Shown: piece by piece, positions 30,440 through 38,578 of the stretch | How positions within the stretch are numbered: the stretch's first letter is position 1 | How the letters are laid out: the number at the start of each line of letters is the position of its first letter | Source of the DNA: Desulfurococcaceae archaeon | GTDB taxonomy: Archaea > Thermoproteota > Thermoprotei_A > Sulfolobales > Desulfurococcaceae | Assembly (NCBI GenBank): GCA_038888155.1 | Contig: JAWAJB010000003.1 | Span: 1-64,000 of the forward strand | Reading direction: 5' to 3' | Length of the DNA: 64,000 nucleotides | Notes under the pieces: model-generated | What the model was told of the DNA's origin: nothing | What the model saw: the letters and a program-made list of their open reading frames with translations, nothing else | Database searches by the model: none | Translations under genes and position numbers: made by a program

Positions 30440-31777
30440 GTGGCGAAGAGATACGAGTTCGAATCCTACAGCGAGTACCTAGCCCCTGGCTACACGCCAG
30501 ATCCCACTGGTGACGTCATAGCTGTATTTAGGGTTACGCCGGCTTATGGCTTTAGGGTAGAGGAGGTAGCAGCTGGGATTGGCGCAGAGAGCAGCACTGG
30601 CACTTGGACTACGCTCTACTCGTGGTACGATGCGAGCAGAGTGAGAGAGCTCAGCGCCAAGGTCTACGAAATAGTAGATCTGGAGGATAGGTCTTACCTA
30701 GTTAAAGTTGCCTACCCGCTAGAGCTATTTGAGCTCGGGAACATACCAGGCTTGCTGGCCAGCGTTGCTGGAAACGTCTTCGGCATGAAGAGAGCCGAGT
30801 TTTTGAGGCTCGAGGACATATATCTGCCGAAGCGTTTTCTAGAGATGTTTAAGGGACCATCGAAGGGGATTAGCGGGGTTATGGATATATTTAGGGTTTA
30901 CGACAGGCCAATTGTAGGCACCGTGCCGAAGCCCAAGATGGGCTACACTCCCAGCGAAGTGGAGAAGCTTGCACATGAACTACTACTAGGCGGGCTAGAC
31001 TACATAAAGGACGACGAGAACTTGACTAGTCCCTCTTTCTGCAGATTTGAGGAGCGCGCCCGGGCTATCATGAAGGTAATTGACAGAGTAGAGGGGGAGA
31101 CAGGCGAGAGGAAAGCGTGGTTCGCCAACATAACAGCTGATATCAGGGAAATGGAGAGGAGGCTCAAGCTAGTGGCTGATTACGGGAACCCGTACGTTAT
31201 GGTGGACGCTGTCATTGCAGGCTGGAGCGCTTTAACTTACATTAGGGACCTAGCTGAGGAATACAAACTAGCTGTACACGCACACAGAGCAATGCACGCC
31301 GCGCTATCTAGGAGCAAGCATCACGGCATCTCTATGTACGTTTTAGCCAAGCTCTACCGCGTAGTAGGTGTAGACCAGCTGCACGTTGGGACAGCTGGAG
31401 TAGGCAAGCTAGAGGGCGAAAAGCTAGACGTTGTAAGAATCGTAAAGGCGCTAAGGGAGGATCATTTTAAGCCAGATCCAGACGACCTCTTTCACTTAGA
31501 GCAGCCAATGCACCACATTAGGCCAGTTGCACCGGTCTCCTCTGGGGGGCTACACCCCGGCATACTCCCCCCAGTTATAGAGGCGCTTGGAAAAGACATC
31601 GTGTTGCAAGTTGGAGGTGGAGTAATAGGGCACCCAGATGGACCAAGGGCTGGGGCATTAGCTGTTAGACAGGCGCTAGATGCAATAAGCACGGGAATAC
31701 CACTAGAAGAGCACGCTAAGGCGCACAGAGAGTTAGCGAGGGCATTGGAAAAATGGGGCTTCATCAAGCCAATTTAA
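30440..31777 (+). CDS. rbcL: RuBisCO form III
   Basis: AESSTGTWT, PKPKMG, GGLDYIKDDE, HAHRAMHAA, SSGGLHPG, QVGGG..GHP. Confidence 0.96.
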   Translation: MAKRYEFESYSEYLAPGYTPDPTGDVIAVFRVTPAYGFRVEEVAAGIGAESSTGTWTTLYSWYDASRVRELSAKVYEIVDLEDRSYLVKVAYPLELFELGNIPGLLASVAGNVFGMKRAEFLRLEDIYLPKRFLEMFKGPSKGISGVMDIFRVYDRPIVGTVPKPKMGYTPSEVEKLAHELLLGGLDYIKDDENLTSPSFCRFEERARAIMKVIDRVEGETGERKAWFANITADIREMERRLKLVADYGNPYVMVDAVIAGWSALTYIRDLAEEYKLAVHAHRAMHAALSRSKHHGISMYVLAKLYRVVGVDQLHVGTAGVGKLEGEKLDVVRIVKALREDHFKPDPDDLFHLEQPMHHIRPVAPVSSGGLHPGILPPVIEALGKDIVLQVGGGVIGHPDGPRAGALAVRQALDAISTGIPLEEHAKAHRELARALEKWGFIKPI

Positions 31778-31806
31778 AGCCTTTTTTCTCAATTCACTTT
31801 ATATCT

Positions 31807-32187
31807 CTACGCAGGCACGCCTGTTGATTCGCTGTAATGATCATCAATCTTGGGGTTCAGAACTCTTGCAATATCGTATATCGCTGGGGGCTTCCAGAAC
31901 ACTTTTTCTAGCGATCTCATTATTCCAACAACCCACATAACAAGCAGCCCTAAGTTTATCAAAGCCGATAAGAAGAAGCCAATAAGCGGTATGAGCCCAA
32001 ATACGGCGCTCACTATTTGAGCCCCAACCACAACAATGAAAAACGATATTGATAAGTAAGCCCAGTACTTAGCGTACTTGTAGTTAGGTTTTAAGACGAG
32101 GACCAAGATGCCGCCAATTAGCGGAATAAGCCAGGCAATAAGCCCCCATATCTTCTCGTCTTCGCTAACTTCAAACTTGTTGCCCAC
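31807..32187 (-). CDS. Small 3-TM membrane protein (DUF4870-like)
   Basis: WGLIAWL..LIGG..V, three hydrophobic segments, WKPP. Confidence 0.65.
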   Translation of the reverse strand: MGNKFEVSEDEKIWGLIAWLIPLIGGILVLVLKPNYKYAKYWAYLSISFFIVVVGAQIVSAVFGLIPLIGFFLSALINLGLLVMWVVGIMRSLEKVFWKPPAIYDIARVLNPKIDDHYSESTGVPA

Positions 32188-32309: not shown

Positions 32310-34451
32310 CTACGATGATAAATTTAAAGAGATAGGATAGTACGCGCAGGAGCCCATGTCCTCAGGTGAAGTACAAAGCTCGAGCCTCAGGTAAAGCACA
32401 GAGCTTTGACCTCCCCCAGTGAAGTACCCCCAGAGAGCTATGTGATTTTCTAGCCCTAAGTTGAGTTGCACTCTACTGGTTGACGTTGATACTGAAGCTC
32501 CGCCCTCTACTGTCACGTTTGTCGACCTCGTGGTGCCCTCAATCCAAATATCAAGGTTTAAAGAAGTTGAGCCAAATACGCTATCCAGTAGAAGTCTAGC
32601 GTAGAGAGTTTGGGAGGCGTTTACCCCTAGAGCCTTTAATGTATTCCCCGGCGCTGAGCCCGGAATAGCCGCATTCACTCTCGCGCTTGTCTTGTTAGCT
32701 CCTAACTCCACTTCAATTGAAGGAGGGGCTCCTTGAGTTTCAACTCTGTACGAGTCTCCGCCGAGAATAGCGTCTGTATTGGGCACCTGATGCACGCAGA
32801 TTAAAGCGTCATCAGAGCCCTTAACCGCTATTCTACCGTCAGTACCCGTGCCCACAACTACATCGTGGAGCAAGCTGAGCGACAACGACTGTCCAGGGGA
32901 AGTCCCCCACGCTACTAAATTGTTGAGATTGTCCCACATTTCAATGGATACGCCAGCACGTAGGTTTGTGAACAATACGCCTCTTGGATCTGAAGTTGCT
33001 ATTAGGAAGTCGTCGAAGTACGCAGTTACAGCGTCAAGCGTCACGCCAATGAAAGCTGGTCTAAACCTTTGCGGGGCAGTTGACGACGCTGAAGCCGTGG
33101 CTAAGAGGTTGCCAGATGCGCCGTAGACTCTCGCTCTAATGTCTATACTGGTTCCCGTATCAGTATAGTTCACGACAAGTACGTACCACGCTACGGTGGA
33201 GTAGCCCGGGATAGTAGTATTTGCAAGAGTGTACCATCCCAATATGTTCTCCACGCCGTAGCTTCTTATGTAGAGCACCCCTGATGTGTGTACCTCTACT
33301 GCGTACACTCTGTTCAAGGGGCTCCTCCCTAACATAACTCCATAGTAGCCAGTTCCAGATGCCCACCTCGTCTTGGAAACGACCCACAGAGTAGTGTAGC
33401 CCGATAAACTAGTGCTGTAATAATATTGCGAGGCGCTGCCAACCCCCCCATCGTTGTCCGTTCCCCGCAATGCGTTACCTTTTGCACCTGCCACGCCGCT
33501 TATAGTGCTCCAGGTCCCACCTCTAGCATCCCATACAGGTAATGGATAAGCCTCGAAGTCTGTATAGGTTAAAGCCGTTCTATCAGTTCTAGTCACTGCA
33601 CACGTATATGCATATAGTGGTTGCTCTAGCGTTGCTGGTGGAGGCTGTGGGTTTATAGCTGGCGATAATGAGTAGTAGGCGAAAACGGATGCCCCTGCAT
33701 TGGATAGAACAACCCCTGCTACTATAGCTATGGGCGCGAAGGCTTGTAAAGTTGTCTTCGCGAGGAATTTCTTGGGCTTTAAGCCCTTGTTTCGTTCTTC
33801 TCTAGTTAATTGCTTGCCGTAAATGTATACAGCCCACATTATTGAAGCTGTTGATGAAGTTATTGAGGCGTAGAGCAGTGCTAGAATTACTGCAGGATGC
33901 GTGAAAAGCAAGTCGTATGCAAGGGTTTTTGTAGCGTTTATCCCCGTGTACTCTACTAGGCCTGCGAGCGTTCTAACCTTAAATACTCCGCCGTTATTTG
34001 CGTAGCTTAAAAGCACTCCAGCGTCGACGCTGAACGCCTGCGAGAGGTACCTTAAAACGCCCGAGGCCACTACAAGTGATGCCGATACGCCGTAGATTAA
34101 TGAGATAGAGGAGAGAGCATTCTTCCTTAGGCAAAGAAGTGCGAGTAGCGTTACGCCGACAAGGACTCCAACGTACGCTGTAGTAGCTACCGCAACTGCT
34201 TTAACTGCATCTAGGTTAGGCAACGCTATTGATCTGCCGTTGGTGTTGTAGCGTATTTCGTAGCTCACTATGGATAGATATCCATGAACATAGCCTGTAA
34301 ACACTATTTGCGGGCACAGAAGCATCAACAAGAATAGAGCTGAAACTGTAAAGCAAAATAACCCGCTGATAGATATAAGCGCCCTCAATTTCCTAGGTAC
34401 ATAGAAATCTTCTTCAGCGCTTAACCGTACCTTACTGTTATCTGCGACCAC
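32310..34451 (-). CDS. Multi-TM protein fused to a secreted pilin-like/beta-sandwich (lectin-like) region; candidate minor pilin or adhesin
   Basis: About four N-terminal TM helices, internal signal-like segment ending SVFAYY..PPP, beta-rich domain (TDFE..W....GTWS, YFDDF), and ELGANKTSARV resembling the pilin's NIGSDSTSAGI. Confidence 0.6.
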   Translation of the reverse strand: MVADNSKVRLSAEEDFYVPRKLRALISISGLFCFTVSALFLLMLLCPQIVFTGYVHGYLSIVSYEIRYNTNGRSIALPNLDAVKAVAVATTAYVGVLVGVTLLALLCLRKNALSSISLIYGVSASLVVASGVLRYLSQAFSVDAGVLLSYANNGGVFKVRTLAGLVEYTGINATKTLAYDLLFTHPAVILALLYASITSSTASIMWAVYIYGKQLTREERNKGLKPKKFLAKTTLQAFAPIAIVAGVVLSNAGASVFAYYSLSPAINPQPPPATLEQPLYAYTCAVTRTDRTALTYTDFEAYPLPVWDARGGTWSTISGVAGAKGNALRGTDNDGGVGSASQYYYSTSLSGYTTLWVVSKTRWASGTGYYGVMLGRSPLNRVYAVEVHTSGVLYIRSYGVENILGWYTLANTTIPGYSTVAWYVLVVNYTDTGTSIDIRARVYGASGNLLATASASSTAPQRFRPAFIGVTLDAVTAYFDDFLIATSDPRGVLFTNLRAGVSIEMWDNLNNLVAWGTSPGQSLSLSLLHDVVVGTGTDGRIAVKGSDDALICVHQVPNTDAILGGDSYRVETQGAPPSIEVELGANKTSARVNAAIPGSAPGNTLKALGVNASQTLYARLLLDSVFGSTSLNLDIWIEGTTRSTNVTVEGGASVSTSTSRVQLNLGLENHIALWGYFTGGGQSSVLYLRLELCTSPEDMGSCAYYPISLNLSS

Positions 34452-35548
34452 TTCTCCTCACCTCCAAGCCTGTAGCTTACATCAGCGTAAACGAACTTGC
34501 TTCCCTCGGGAGGCTCGACAGTTGCAAAGCCGTGCTCGCTCACGACCTCCTGAATTGAAGCGTTCTTCCATGCGTCGCCAACGCCGTAGGCGTACTTTAA
34601 AGACACGTTAACAAATACCGGAAAACAATTCGGATTGTAGAATTGGAGGGAGCCGTTAACAGCCTTCACCTCTAGGTGCCTTGGATAAGCTCTAACAGCG
34701 TAGTTACCTTCAAGCCTCCCCACGTGATTCAATGTAGCGTAGACGCTTACGTTCAGCGAGCTTTCGTTATTTAATCTTTGAGCGACTTCACGCGGCACTT
34801 TCGCCAATACGCTCGATTCGCTGAGCAACGCGGGTAGCTCAACTTCGTCAATGTATACCTTAGCGCCAGTTAGCTGAAGGGAGCCCACGTAGCTTACTAG
34901 CAGCGTACACGTTTCGGAGTTGAGCTCCAGCTTAGATAAGTGAAGAACGGGGAGCTCAACTCGAGTTGAGCTCACAACAGGTTGCGTTAGACCGTAGACA
35001 ACTAGTATAAGTACGAGGATTGTAGCGTAAACCATAGCTGAGGCAAAGCCAACTAGCTTTACTTTTGCAACGTTAATTAAGCTAGCCACTACAGCGTAGA
35101 GGAATATCGGCAGCCAGATTTCCCTAGGTATGATGCACACAACGACGCCTTTAATCCAATTAAGTGATACCGGGAAAGGATCGGGGGCTGGGTTGGCGTC
35201 GCCCTTAGTGATAATGCAGTTAACTCCGTGAGGGCAGTCAGCAACGTATCTGTGAACAATGCAGGAACTACTAGTTAAGCAGTATACAACTACATCTCCT
35301 GCAGATGGCGGGCTTCTCACGTAGATTGCAATATCCCACCTACGAATAATTGGCTCCATGCTGCCAGAGCAAACAACGGCTCCCCCGAAAGCGCTGTAAA
35401 CTCCAAGGCGGGAAAGAAGAGTAAACAAGAAGAGAGCGGTGAAGACAACTAAGACGGTAGAGGGTAAAATCCTGAGGAAAACCAAAGCCAATGAACGACG
35501 GGAAACCTGTCCACGAAAAAACTGGTTGAATTCACGGGGAATACTCAT
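34421..35548 (-). CDS. Signal peptidase I, SipW/ER-type (S26B), with a long C-terminal extension
   Basis: SGSMEP, GDVVVY, IVHR, ITKGDANPAPDP. Confidence 0.9.
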   Translation of the reverse strand: MSIPREFNQFFRGQVSRRSLALVFLRILPSTVLVVFTALFLFTLLSRLGVYSAFGGAVVCSGSMEPIIRRWDIAIYVRSPPSAGDVVVYCLTSSSCIVHRYVADCPHGVNCIITKGDANPAPDPFPVSLNWIKGVVVCIIPREIWLPIFLYAVVASLINVAKVKLVGFASAMVYATILVLILVVYGLTQPVVSSTRVELPVLHLSKLELNSETCTLLVSYVGSLQLTGAKVYIDEVELPALLSESSVLAKVPREVAQRLNNESSLNVSVYATLNHVGRLEGNYAVRAYPRHLEVKAVNGSLQFYNPNCFPVFVNVSLKYAYGVGDAWKNASIQEVVSEHGFATVEPPEGSKFVYADVSYRLGGEEKWSQITVRYG

Positions 35549-35562
35549 CTATAGCAGCCCCT

Positions 35563-36168
35563 TTACGGCGGGATCTCACTAGATGGCGTGTAAACTAAAT
35601 GCATGTTGAAAGTAGCTTGTTGCCCGCTAATGCTTGTTCCCTCGGGTATGTAAACCATTAAGTCCACTTCCCACATTGAATTACCACTAAGAGCTCCAAT
35701 TTGTTGGGGGTTGTTTGTGTTCGTACTGGTTAATTCAATAACTCTAACAGCTCCACTTGGTTCCCCCGGTTGAGGATAAGATGCCGGCAGATCTCTCGTG
35801 GCATTATAGTCATAGACTATTAGCCAAACCTTAGAGCCCGCTGGTATACTCCCACTCATTTGATCTAGAATTAGGTAAACATTGTAGGCCTTTGAATCCG
35901 TGTTGCTTATCAATGTCAAGTTCTTGTAATAAGTTGTTTGATAGGTTGGATGTACTGTAATACCTGCACTTGTTGAATCACTCCCTATGTTGACCTGTAT
36001 TTCCTTGTTCCCGAGGTCTTTCTGTCCAGCGTTGCTACCGAGGAGGAACTTTATCGGCGGCTCTACGGGTTGCACTACTAGTTGAAATGGGTAGTATGCG
36101 AAAACGCTTCCAGCTATAAACGATGTTGCTAGTAGCGCTAATAAAAACATGGGTATTCTCTTCTCCAC
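35563..36168 (-). CDS. Secreted beta-rich protein; candidate TasA/AbpA-like major pilin
   Basis: Signal peptide MEKR-hydrophobic, then SVFAYYPFQLVVQPVEPPIKF.LGSNAG; no C-terminal anchor; directly upstream of the SipW-like peptidase. Confidence 0.65.
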   Translation of the reverse strand: MEKRIPMFLLALLATSFIAGSVFAYYPFQLVVQPVEPPIKFLLGSNAGQKDLGNKEIQVNIGSDSTSAGITVHPTYQTTYYKNLTLISNTDSKAYNVYLILDQMSGSIPAGSKVWLIVYDYNATRDLPASYPQPGEPSGAVRVIELTSTNTNNPQQIGALSGNSMWEVDLMVYIPEGTSISGQQATFNMHLVYTPSSEIPP

Positions 36169-36352: not shown

Positions 36353-37066
36353 GTGGTGCTTATGACCACCGAGCCTCTGTGGCTTTCGATGATTCTCGAT
36401 AGGGTTAGACCGGACCTTGAGGAGCTGTGCTCTGAGCTCGTCGTCTTAAAGGAGTGTAATTTAGTGTTGGACTCCCTTGTTGAATCCCACCCGCTGTGGT
36501 TTGAGGGTAAAAAGAAGAAGACTGTCACTGCCGCTATTCTCTATATTTCTTTGTTAGTTAGTAGAGGGCCTCGGAGAGGCGTTTTAAGAGAGGCTTTAGA
36601 TCTCGCCGGCATTTCAAAAGTTTCCCTGAGGGACGCTTTGTCGAGGCTAGTTGAAGTTGATTGGAGCCTCGGCGTTGTTTACTTCAACCCCAAGTTCTAC
36701 TCTGCTCTTAGAAAAAGAGTAGCTCTGCCAGGGTACGTAGTGCCGTTAATGCTCTCGGAAGTAATTAGGGCAAAACTCTCTAGGGTTTCGCCCGGTTTAT
36801 ACGAGTTCCTCAACGTGCAGTGCAAGAAGGGCGTTGGTAAAGACTGCGTATCAACTCTCCTCGAAAATCCAGCAACAGTTAGAGATATTATAATCAGCAA
36901 GTACGGGACGCCAATTGTAGCTAGGCGAATAGCTGAGAGGCTCTTTGCTTCAATAATAGAAGTTATAGGGGTCGAGAAATCGCCAGCAGAACTAGCTGAG
37001 CTTTTCACCAGCAACCCAGAGGAGTTACGTAAACTGCTTGCTTCTAGTGCCCGCAGCTCAAAGTAA
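36353..37066 (+). CDS. TFB/cyclin-repeat-like domain fused to a small helical domain
   Basis: FEGKKKKTVTAAILYISL...LREALDLAGISKVSLR resembles a TFIIB repeat; C-terminal C....GKDC..LLENP..VRDII..YG. Confidence 0.5.
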   Translation: MVLMTTEPLWLSMILDRVRPDLEELCSELVVLKECNLVLDSLVESHPLWFEGKKKKTVTAAILYISLLVSRGPRRGVLREALDLAGISKVSLRDALSRLVEVDWSLGVVYFNPKFYSALRKRVALPGYVVPLMLSEVIRAKLSRVSPGLYEFLNVQCKKGVGKDCVSTLLENPATVRDIIISKYGTPIVARRIAERLFASIIEVIGVEKSPAELAELFTSNPEELRKLLASSARSSK

Positions 37067-37159
37067 ACTTTGTAGCGACAAACCGCCTCCTGTTAAGTCA
37101 AAGCATTTTTATGTACCTTATTCTTTAGGATAATTTAAGTGCGAGGGAGATGGTACTCA

Positions 37160-38578
37160 ATGGAGGCAGCGTTCACCACTGGCAACAAGGAATTAGACAG
37201 GTTAATAGGCCCCATTCACTCGAAGTACATGTTGCTAATTGTAGGCCACCCCGGTGCAGGTAAAACAACTCTCGCTAGTAGCATATGCTACGAGAACGCG
37301 CAAAGGGGCTACAAATGCCTCTACATATCATTTTACGAAGACAAAGACAAGTTCTACAGAAATATGGATAAACTAGGAATAGACTTAGCTGACATTGAAT
37401 CTAGGGGGCTTTTAACTCACGTTAAGTTGCCCGTTGTGAAATCCGCTGAAGTGCTAGGTATAGTGAATGAACTTATAGTTAAGGACTCCTACAAAGTTGT
37501 TGTACTTGACTCTATAAACCCTGTGCTAGAGCTTTACAGGAAGAGAGAGCAAAGGGCAATACTATTAAACTTCTTCTACAACTTGATAGATGCAATAGAT
37601 GGCTTACTGGTAGCAATCTCCGAGATTTCGTGGGGCAAGGAGACTCTCAACCTCGGCTCAATTGATTTCGTGGCAGACGCAATAATTTACTTAAAGCACA
37701 GGATAACTCGCGGATTGCTAGTAAGAGTGTTGGAGTTGAGGAAGATAAGGGGCTCGCAATTAAGTACAGCTGAAATACCCTTTGACATAGTCGAGAAAAG
37801 GGGAATTATCGTTTACGCTCCTAGAAGGCTGGAGAGGCCGCGCAGCGAGGCAGTGAAGGCTTTGAAAACATGCATGTTATTGGAGGACGCCATTGGGGCA
37901 ATATATAAAGGAGACATCATATCGGTGAACTACCCGCCGAACGCGAGGCCCTCCTTGGTGTTGCTTCCGCTCATTAACTTCGCAGTAATAAACGACATAA
38001 AGTTGCTTGGGATCTCGTACAGGTACTCCCTAGAGGACACTAAGGCGGCTGTAGAAGCCGCTTTAATTAAATACTACGGCTTAAGTCTAACTGAGGCAAA
38101 CTGGATCATTAACAACTACATGCGCTTGGAGTCCATCAATCCAGCAACTATTTCAATTCCGCAGATAGTTAGCTTTGAGATGAGGCTAGTTGAGAAAGAG
38201 AGACCGGGAATAGTGGTATTTCACGCGCGCGAAATCCCCTGGAGGCTTACACGCAACACAGATGAAGACGGCTACTGGACTTCTCTAGTGAACCAGTTAA
38301 CCTGGCTCGAAAACCATGGAATAACAACTGCGTGGATGTATAGCAGAGTAGACCAGCAATTTGTGAAAATGAGCGAAGCACTAGCAGATATCTCAATAAG
38401 GGCATACTATAAACCAGGCGATAAAGGTCTGAGGCAACTATGGTACACTTGGAGAAGAGGCCAAGAGCCAAGGATAGTAGACTTCGCCAGCCCAGTGACC
38501 CAGGAGAAAATACAAGAGTGCTCAAAAATGCTAAAGAGTTTAGTTCACGAGAAACTAGCTGGGGGCAGTTCAAACTAG
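37160..38578 (+). CDS. KaiC/RAD55-like two-domain ATPase, second domain degenerate
   Basis: TGNKELDRLIG, GHPGAGKT, YISFYE, VVLDS, FVADAIIYL, LRKIRG; the second domain has NYPPNARP in place of Walker A. Confidence 0.88.
   Translation: MEAAFTTGNKELDRLIGPIHSKYMLLIVGHPGAGKTTLASSICYENAQRGYKCLYISFYEDKDKFYRNMDKLGIDLADIESRGLLTHVKLPVVKSAEVLGIVNELIVKDSYKVVVLDSINPVLELYRKREQRAILLNFFYNLIDAIDGLLVAISEISWGKETLNLGSIDFVADAIIYLKHRITRGLLVRVLELRKIRGSQLSTAEIPFDIVEKRGIIVYAPRRLERPRSEAVKALKTCMLLEDAIGAIYKGDIISVNYPPNARPSLVLLPLINFAVINDIKLLGISYRYSLEDTKAAVEAALIKYYGLSLTEANWIINNYMRLESINPATISIPQIVSFEMRLVEKERPGIVVFHAREIPWRLTRNTDEDGYWTSLVNQLTWLENHGITTAWMYSRVDQQFVKMSEALADISIRAYYKPGDKGLRQLWYTWRRGQEPRIVDFASPVTQEKIQECSKMLKSLVHEKLAGGSSN

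Follow-up and report, generated by a model that had tools for sequence, protein, structure and literature searches.

The 64-kb window analysed here (64,000 nucleotides, positions 1 to 64,000 of the forward strand of contig JAWAJB010000003.1, from the Desulfurococcaceae archaeon assembly GCA_038888155.1) carries three tightly packed genes on the minus strand, which encode proteins of 201 amino acids (aa; 35563-36168), 375 aa (34421-35548) and 713 aa (32310-34451). The gap between the 201-aa gene and the 375-aa gene is 14 nt, and the start of the 713-aa gene overlaps the stop of the 375-aa gene by 31 nt. We read the three products as a major pilin, a signal peptidase I, and a protein in which a membrane module with four transmembrane (TM) helices is joined to a lectin-bearing tip subunit. 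The best explanation of the whole, to which we give a joint probability of about 60%, is that the operon specifies a donor-strand-complemented archaeal pilus of the thread or archaeal bundling pilus (ABP) type and that the 713-aa protein is a gene fusion within this operon, from which the operon peptidase would free the tip subunit that starts the fibre.

Pilin, signal peptidase and membrane module

The 201-aa protein (35563-36168, minus strand) begins with a predicted signal peptide (aa 1-20, 36109-36168, minus strand), which is followed directly by the donor strand SVFAYYPFQLVVQPVEPP (aa 21-38, 36055-36108, minus strand) and then by a beta-sandwich head. Its AlphaFold2 (AF2) model (predicted local distance difference test, pLDDT, of 87.4) matched the thread subunit Saci_0406 (7pnb_A; Z 14.7, root-mean-square deviation (rmsd) 3.4, 158 residues aligned at 21% identity in VIA; Foldseek E 5.2e-9) and AbpA (7ueg_A; Z 12.0 in VIA; Foldseek E 9.9e-6), and the next VIA match, a Natrinema Tafi pilin, reached Z 6.9. 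In addition, residue 21 of the model aligned with the first ordered residue (24) of 7pnb_A. All 13 pilin homologs from related loci have A/G at -1 followed by (S/A/T)(V/L)(F/V).YY, and the uncharged stretch of the pilin signal peptides is 16-19 residues long (median 17). In the window this motif reads SVFAYY (aa 21-26, 36091-36108) and opens the mature protein. Searches of Pfam and NCBIfam at E up to 0.1 assigned the pilin and the 713-aa protein to no family. At that threshold neither protein matched the TasA/camelysin profile PF12389 (Pfam) or TIGR04088 (NCBIfam), which we take to be the SipW-cognate signal peptide class, with a motif that SVFAYY seems to us to resemble. The predicted structure indicates that the 201-aa protein is a thread/ABP-type donor-strand pilin, belonging to the TasA superfamily in the wide sense. 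A variant at 36131, which changes L13 to R in the pilin signal peptide, was seen in one contig at depth 3 and may be an error.

The 375-aa protein (34421-35548, minus strand) consists of a catalytic part (aa 1-140) and a conserved extension. It matched TIGR02228 with 57.9 bits against a cut-off of 51.85 (E 1e-15, NCBIfam). The SMxP box, which is SMEP in this protein, is retained in all 12 family rows printed, and the His and GDxN boxes that are visible in the sequence are presumably the other catalytic ones. We assign the protein as a predicted archaeal or endoplasmic reticulum-type signal peptidase I that is dedicated to the operon. The extension (aa 141-375, 34424-35128) contains two hydrophobic segments and a beta-rich domain of ~190 aa, and it is conserved in most related loci. 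It has no Pfam family, its hhalign probability against the pilin core and against each of the three tip domains described below (D1, D2 and D3) was at most 4%, and the ESM Atlas gave sub-threshold leads only, which were Ig-like or PKD-like with TM-scores mostly <0.5. A chaperone-like role of the extension is conceivable. For the Tafi system of haloarchaea, the accessible parts of the published papers describe the peptidase TafD as containing a pilin-like domain (PMC11821415, PMC12337348).

The first 226 residues of the 713-aa protein (33774-34451, minus strand) form the 4-TM module. In the AF2 model of the whole protein, which was built on 36 homologs and has a mean pLDDT of 85.1, helices lie at residues 20-45, 84-107, 112-152 and 186-222, and a fifth lies at 227-256. 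Hydropathy gave the same picture, which bears out the initial annotation of about four TM helices followed by a basic-hydrophobic, signal-like segment. The long loops 1 and 3 each hold a predicted extracellular three-stranded beta meander (aa 49-68 and 156-175), and the residues that are invariant in the module are found in these outer meanders (P47, G53, G57, Y64, T161, A163 and G164) and in TM3 (G121). The K/R counts per loop fit an N-in topology with loops 1 and 3 outside (the 5-residue loop 2 has 2 K/R), and 8 K/R lie within the 25 residues preceding the fifth segment. Since this charge distribution fits the N-in topology, the fifth segment is expected to run from inside to outside like a signal peptide. 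The module matched no Pfam or NCBIfam family at E up to 0.1, DUF5305 was unmatched in both the module and the peptidase extension (Pfam, E up to 0.1), and the ESM Atlas returned only sub-threshold hits to hypothetical proteins of ~200 aa, the best at 0.82. The conserved outer face of the module and its fixed position beside the peptidase gene suggest a role as peptidase partner or as assembly platform.

The probable tip subunit and its predicted contact with the pilin

Beyond the fifth segment, the 713-aa protein opens with the same motif as the mature pilin. The initial annotation had placed an echo of the pilin's SVFAYY at 33672-33689, and the echo is upheld, as the motif is conserved across both families. 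In the hhalign comparison of the pilin with the 713-aa family, the signal peptide together with ASVFxYYP..P.PP..F aligned over 39 columns (95.7%, E 9.4e-9). The range given does contain SVFAYY (aa 255-260), but it covers only the first six residues of an 18-aa strand, SVFAYYSLSPAINPQPPP (aa 255-272, 33636-33689, minus strand), which we define as the tip donor strand from its hhalign match to the pilin donor strand and from the complex prediction described below. Over both analyses made, the hhalign E values of the donor strands ranged from 5.7e-7 to 9.4e-9, and the stretch common to the pilin and the tip subunit extends 18-23 residues beyond the predicted cleavage site. In contigs of three other DNA runs, an A>G change at 33671 converts S261 to P, and the shared motif there is the 7-mer SVFAYYP, as in the pilin and in the family consensus; the Ser261 of the window is thus a strain variant or an assembly error.

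The donor strand is followed by three domains. D1 (aa 273-488, 32988-33635, minus strand) is modelled as a ConA-like lectin or carbohydrate-binding module (CBM)-like jelly roll, with pLDDT >90 across most of its length. In VIA it matched the CBM66 structure 4b1m_C at Z 19.5 (rmsd 2.3, 156 of 161 residues aligned, model residues 298-486) and legume lectins at Z 16-17, in rows that span model residues 290-488. The Trp/Tyr/Thr-rich beta domain that had been called lectin-like from its composition therefore has a predicted ConA-like fold. The top Foldseek rows for the 713-aa model were receptor-binding or lectin-like parts of large multidomain proteins, with TM-scores <0.3. D2 (aa 489-577, 32721-32987, minus strand) is a small beta domain with the pattern DPR...WDNLGNLV...VVGTGxDGRI, AF2 strands at 491-573 and the invariant residues D530, V532, G534, T535, G536 and G539. 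The VIA rows for the whole 713-aa model were filled by the lectin domain, and none fell on D2, D3 or the TM module; these parts may nonetheless have known folds.

D3 (aa 578-701, 32349-32720, minus strand) contains the second echo of the pilin. Its segment IEVELGANKTSARVNA (aa 579-594, 32670-32717) begins 319 residues beyond the SVFAYY motif and echoes IQVNIGSDSTSAGITV of the pilin (aa 57-72). When the pilin core was compared by hhalign with residues 575-713, pilin residues 56-105 aligned with 578-626 over 49 columns (80%, E 1.3e-5). As a control, the pilin core was compared with the other two domains, which gave 0.1-0.2%. In addition, a hidden Markov model of D3 (residues 575-713) matched pilin open reading frames (ORFs) elsewhere over most of their length, at E 1.6e-5 in locus L045 and 4.6e-5 in locus L057, and matched five more pilin ORFs weakly, down to E 1.4e-3. 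BLASTP of the pilin against the 713-aa protein found the N-terminal match only (E 0.004), and hhalign of the whole alignments likewise missed the second echo, which was recovered by sub-alignments only. The echo that the initial annotation had noted about 320 residues after the first is thus detected by profile comparison, though not by BLASTP, and D3 appears to be a pilin-like domain. A search for proteins of <392 aa that match D3 gave 5 matches, which read as fragments of the same family, and found no D3-only cap.

The protein ends with the strand CAYYPISLNLSS (aa 702-713, 32313-32348, minus strand; CxYYPIxLxL), which resembles the donor-strand sequence VFAYYPFQLVV and lies one strand beyond the aligned last strand of the pilin. 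At this strand, 31 of 35 family members have [YF][YFN]P. A six-frame translation of the genome (1.23 million residues) contains the pattern YYP[ILFVM].[LIVM].[LIVMA] 7 times, with 5 of the occurrences in these loci. We infer that the C-terminal strand may fill the groove of D3 itself in cis. The proposal of a pilin fold that carries an inserted lectin-like domain is in line with the predicted order of parts, which is colinear with that of the pilin: after a signal peptide come the donor strand and the first strand, an insert of ~296 aa made up of the lectin domain and the small beta domain, and the pilin-like domain.

The complex of residues 255-713 with the mature pilin was predicted as a heterologous pair, with alignments of our own as input. 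The complex score (ipSAE) was 0.90, 0.90 and 0.88 in three runs, while the best of 3 controls scored 0.00; the mark used for this score is reached by 116 of 157 solved complexes and by 2 of 215 mismatched pairs. The runs agreed in at least 98% of contacts, with a partner pLDDT of at least 89. In the interface, the whole of strand 255-272 meets pilin residues 66-82 and 183-196, and the only other residues of the tip subunit in it belong to D3. In the predicted complex, the pilin's own tail is not touched by the 713-aa protein and is not docked on D3. The prediction supports binding of the tip strand 255-272 in the pilin groove. Of the earlier suggestion of a tip adhesin or nucleator, the nucleator or tip role fits this predicted docking of the N-terminal strand, and on the adhesin side what stands is the lectin-like fold of the insert.

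The fusion and its possible processing

A simple fusion of two genes had been named in the initial annotation as the alternative to a tip adhesin. The fusion also proves to be true, since relatives have a separate module gene and a tip subunit with its own signal peptide, and it is compatible with the tip reading. The 36 aligned relatives comprise 22 full long forms (38-48% identity), 2 long forms that are cut at the N-terminus and 12 short forms (459-496 aa), so that the TM module and the adhesin occur both as one gene and as two. Two gene orders were found in 21 loci from named genomes. In order A (11 loci), the pilin and peptidase genes are followed by the module fused to the ectodomain; L003 probably also has this order, with a module too divergent for tblastn. 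In order B (3 loci), the ectodomain gene lies between the pilin and peptidase genes, and in the two of these loci that reach far enough (L017 and L014) a separate 4-TM gene comes after the peptidase gene, with whose end it overlaps. A module profile matched 75 of the 351 genomes of the class, in 26 of 106 genera; 17 of the 85 match rows lie in open frames of at least 500 aa (15 genomes) and 68 in frames of at most 265 aa. One family with 47 genomes in the class (f11) gave no match to this profile.

The position of the module gene is similar in fused and separate loci. In each of the 14 fused loci examined, the peptidase gene comes before the fusion. In 20 contexts of a standalone module, it was directly upstream in 16, 2.3 kb off in 1 and unseen in 3. 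A full tip gene is present in 9 of these 20 contexts, between the pilin and peptidase genes where the contig reaches the pilin; in 3 there is a shorter protein that retains D3 and lacks the lectin, and in 5 no tip gene is nearby. Over all loci with sufficient contig reach, the tip gene is linked to the pilin and peptidase genes in nearly every case. Taken together, these comparisons indicate that the 713-aa protein is a true fusion, whose relatives mostly encode the ~200-aa module separately, right after the peptidase.

An ectodomain tree was built from 35 rows, after P0023 was dropped as too short. In this tree, 21 of 23 long forms fall in one clade (support 96/94) with long branches, which suggests that the fused state, with an intact cleavage box, has persisted through much divergence. 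The fusion may have a single origin.

The family also varies in its other parts. Proteins of 343-416 aa in L054 (4813-5841), L060 (4639-5886) and L061 (4689-5771) keep the donor strand and the pilin-like domain and have no lectin domain, which makes the adhesive head appear exchangeable. Longer variants include P0030, which has 883 aa and a different N-terminus, a 652-aa ORF in L017 and a 924-aa fused open frame in G196. L020 (6989-8449), L049, L050 and L052 show two further departures. In some genomes the tip gene lies away from any pilin-peptidase-module cluster, and in L020 it stands beside multi-TM antiporter-like ORFs. Conversely, some clusters have a pilin, a peptidase and a module but no tip gene nearby, as is also the case in L034.

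At the joint itself lies the signal-peptide-like segment (aa 227-254, 33690-33773, minus strand), with a basic n-region (KPKKFLAK), the h-region AFAPIAIVAGVVL, the c-region SNAGA and a predicted cleavage site after A254. In the 12 short-form homologs, it is the N-terminal signal peptide that aligns with this segment. Position -1 is Ala in all 22 long forms, and position -3 is L (7), S (6), T (5), A (2), N (1) or V (1). The uncharged stretch of the long forms is 15-22 residues with a median of 17, the same median as in the pilin signal peptides, compared to 24 residues in TM2 and 23 in TM3. The conserved Ala and the length of the uncharged stretch make cleavage likely; the adjacent, overlapping peptidase gene and the short forms, in which the subunit is an ordinary secreted preprotein, argue in the same direction. 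We consider it rather probable that the peptidase cuts the internal segment of the fused protein. In a literature search, no publication was found that joins an archaeal donor strand with an internal signal, and among the matches listed for an internal signal peptide of a polytopic archaeal precursor with signal peptidase nothing was relevant.

The alternative that survives best, although we doubt it, is that the fifth segment is an uncleaved signal-anchor. The protein would then stay whole, with strand 255-272 holding the first pilin and the module anchoring the fibre base; the lectin would be placed at the cell surface, possibly on glycans of the S-layer, and new pilins would join at the far end. 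The fusion does physically join the subunit to a membrane module, donor-strand insertion needs no free N-terminus in the complex model, and the cut itself is a prediction from sequence features. In addition, membrane anchors have been proposed in related systems, such as TafF in the accessible text on Tafi (PMC11821415). However, the uncharged stretch has the length of a signal peptide (median 17, against 23-24 in TM2 and TM3), the (-3,-1) box is intact in all 22 long forms and the peptidase gene lies alongside. In the pilins, filament formation requires a cut at the same motif. Moreover, the 12 short forms have an ordinary signal peptide and a separate module, so no covalent anchor is needed there, and with a strand-giving anchor the fibre could grow only at its distal end.

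Several points weigh against the preferred reading, in which a cleaved tip subunit starts a pilus. Internal cleavage is a prediction from sequence features and gene position. Conservation of the Ala at -1 could reflect the donor-strand motif and not the needs of the peptidase, Asn stands at -3 in one long form, and a strand left uncleaved could still reach the pilin groove at the membrane surface. Two long forms fall in an unresolved group with short forms in the ectodomain tree, so that fusion or fission may have happened more than once. D3 resembles the pilin through a 49-column profile match at 80%, which becomes 59% against the whole ectodomain, and the C-terminal strand alone aligned weakly with the donor strand in hhalign (E 0.031, probability 1.6%). 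The complex prediction used alignments of our own and may pass through likeness to solved thread/ABP filaments. Finally, contigs of an RNA-Seq library cover parts of all three genes, but they do not prove transcription and none spans 33359-33811; their depths cannot rank the genes, and DNA carry-over is possible.

We regard it as improbable that the 713-aa protein has no part in a pilus and is instead a lectin bound to the membrane or a surface protein that binds glycans; it would then share SVFxYYP with the pilin only as a common peptidase substrate. Its largest and best-modelled domain does have a carbohydrate-binding type of fold, and no sequence family gives it a function. On the other hand, the common stretch, which is the pilin's donor strand, continues for 18-23 residues after the cleavage site, the predicted complex puts this strand in the groove while the controls scored 0.00, D3 matches the pilin core, and the gene is linked to the pilin and peptidase genes in nearly all loci that are long enough.

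An artefact, in which neighbouring genes were joined by a sequencing error or the ectodomain is made from an internal start, is very improbable: although the window genome is in 134 contigs with 6.4% contamination and one relative (L035) has an in-frame stop between the two parts, the same fused frame is found again in 15 genomes (17 match rows) and in 22 full long forms, whose identity is 38-48%, and contigs of three other DNA runs cross the joint with no indel and one missense change. At the level of the DNA, the artefact is thereby refuted. In L035 (1498-3573), from a genome that is 62% complete, the fused-type gene has a single in-frame stop right after the YY of the donor-strand motif, and a near relative has Q at this position. 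Since the stop replaces a Q/P codon within the donor strand, it looks like a nonsense change or an error and not like a gene boundary. As internal translation starts for the ectodomain, only a TTG at aa 181 and an ATG at aa 205 were found within aa 150-255; both lie within TM4, M205 is not conserved, and these candidates were rejected.

Proposed assembly model, related systems and neighbouring genes

In the reading we favour, that of a cleaved tip subunit which donates the first strand, the whole 713-aa protein would be inserted in the membrane, as its predicted topology suggests, with the Sec signal peptide of the tip subunit retained as a fifth, N-in/C-out membrane segment. The operon peptidase would then cut after A254 and free a 459-aa subunit that begins with SVFAYY. 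According to the complex prediction, strand 255-272 of this subunit would enter the acceptor groove of the first 201-aa pilin and prime polymerisation. D3 would need no donor strand if, as its sequence suggests, the C-terminal CxYYPIxLxL strand fills its groove in cis, and a self-complemented D3 would make the tip subunit terminal. The ConA-like lectin domain (a fold taken from the model) would be a probable glycan-binding adhesin at that end of the fibre, and the 4-TM module would remain in the membrane as peptidase partner or assembly platform.

More tentatively, and with the odds against it, the peptidase with its extension and the 4-TM module could together form a dedicated assembly platform that works without chaperone or usher, to which the fused lineages would carry the first subunit in cis, to be released by the internal cut. 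Processing of a polytopic precursor by a prokaryotic type I signal peptidase would then, to our knowledge, be a rare natural case. If so, the released subunit would be a natural self-complemented pilin that donates a strand and needs none, and growth would take place at the membrane, where pilins would stay tethered by their signal peptides until the peptidase frees the donor strand for the next subunit.

The natural fusion gives a direct genetic hint that the starter subunit and the membrane module act together, because it ties them in one protein. Laboratories build donor-strand-complemented constructs for bacterial pilins, and the putative cis-complementing C-terminal strand would be their natural counterpart.

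The comparisons with published systems that follow refer to the accessible parts of the cited papers. Structures have been solved for archaeal donor-strand fibres (threads, bundling pili, Tafi and cannulae). For the threads of Sulfolobus acidocaldarius, Saci_0405 has been proposed to act as cap or nucleator, donating its N-terminal strand and lacking an acceptor site, while the assembly pathway is stated to be unknown and no dedicated peptidase is named in the text available (PMC9715654). The locus of the window resembles the thread system in that the 201-aa pilin has the same predicted fold as Saci_0406 and a donor strand directly after the signal peptidase I site, and the role we propose for the 459-aa subunit is that proposed for Saci_0405. 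Unlike the 459-aa subunit, Saci_0405 is small, pilin-like and has no predicted Sec signal (PMC9715654). The subunit described here differs from it by a lectin domain and a second beta domain, a clear signal peptide, an apparently self-filled groove and the fusion to a 4-TM module.

The Tafi system of haloarchaea has the dedicated peptidase TafD, the tip/activator subunit TafC with a laminin-G-like domain, the DUF5305 helper TafG and the anchor TafF (PMC11821415, PMC12337348). As in Tafi, the operon of the window combines a pilin with a dedicated signal peptidase I that has extra TM helices, and its tip subunit combines a pilin-like with a ConA-type domain, as does the Tafi tip/activator subunit with its laminin-G-like domain, which is modelled to start assembly by strand donation. 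In contrast to the Sec-type signals predicted here, those of the Tafi subunits are Tat signals; TafC is secreted as a protein of its own and is not a fusion, and no Tafi counterpart of the 4-TM module is described in the accessible text. In addition, the Tafi pilin is only a distant structural match to the 201-aa pilin (Z 6.9), and no DUF5305 was detected here with Pfam. The DUF5305 proteins have an extracellular sandwich, two TM helices and, in the cytoplasm, an alpha/beta fold, unlike the 4-TM module (10.64898/2026.01.04.697558). In abpX loci, the same preprint reports a peptidase together with an accessory protein and with tip proteins (10.64898/2026.01.04.697558).

Systems with a major donor-strand subunit and a minor subunit put forward as donor of the first strand, as it is here, also include tapA-sipW-tasA of Bacillus subtilis and abpA/abpB of Pyrobaculum (PMC9245690, PMC10151520). 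TapA and AbpB have been proposed as nucleators that give the first strand, and the Pyrobaculum operon includes three 4-TM proteins to which the accessible text assigns no role (PMC9245690). In Bacillus, a dedicated SipW-type peptidase processes both the major and the minor subunit (PMC9245690, PMC10151520). AbpB and TapA have a different beta-sandwich as their first domain, and the Pyrobaculum locus is described without a peptidase of its own (PMC9245690). The 201-aa pilin has no Pfam TasA match and no TIGR04088-type signal. By analogy with the published descriptions, we place the tip subunit with the TapA- and TafC-like nucleators of TasA-superfamily pili. In FimH, the tip adhesin of chaperone-usher pili, the lectin domain binds and the pilin domain joins the rod, and FimH accepts a strand and gives none. 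The tip subunit would be a two-part terminal subunit like FimH, but it would give a strand and appears to need none, and neither a chaperone nor an usher is found here. FimH-type structures matched the pilin model only weakly (Z about 5).

Systems of this kind are thus known already. As far as our literature search shows, what is new is a tip subunit that follows a conserved 4-TM module in one protein and has its signal peptide in an internal position, the 4-TM module as a recurrent fourth component, and a C-terminal strand that resembles a donor strand. The locus type is a compact, conserved set of four parts, namely a pilin, a lectin-bearing starter subunit, an extended signal peptidase and a 4-TM protein with a conserved outer face. 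The fusion with its putative internal export signal offers, in a hot-spring archaeon, a handle on the assembly of such fibres.

The genome assembly has three such loci, each with a pilin and a fused module-tip gene: that of the window and those on contigs C67 (2499-6467) and C80 (2963-6670). The source genome is a 134-contig assembly of 2.4 Mb with 6.4% contamination, whereas the listed genomes of the same genus have 0.9-1.5 Mb (rounded figures), and the loci on C67 and C80 may therefore be paralogs or mixed strains in the bin.

On the plus strand, divergent from the pilin gene, the region 36353-38578 carries a TFIIB-repeat-like gene of 237 aa (36353-37066), whose Pfam TFIIB match (E 0.015) falls below the cut-off, and a KaiC-family ATPase of 479 aa (Pfam KaiC E 1.8e-33). 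A homolog of the TFIIB-like protein (E 1.6e-56) was found at the same place, beside the pilin gene, in one of the 21 related loci (L006). The TFIIB-like gene is possibly a regulator of the operon, although it is weakly tied to the system. Downstream of the 713-aa gene, the region 30440-32187 encodes a protein of 445 aa, which from reading its sequence by eye we take to be a RuBisCO-like large subunit, and a DUF4870-like small membrane protein of 126 aa (below the cut-off). The tip gene of L008 has the same two downstream neighbours, at 82% and 76% identity.

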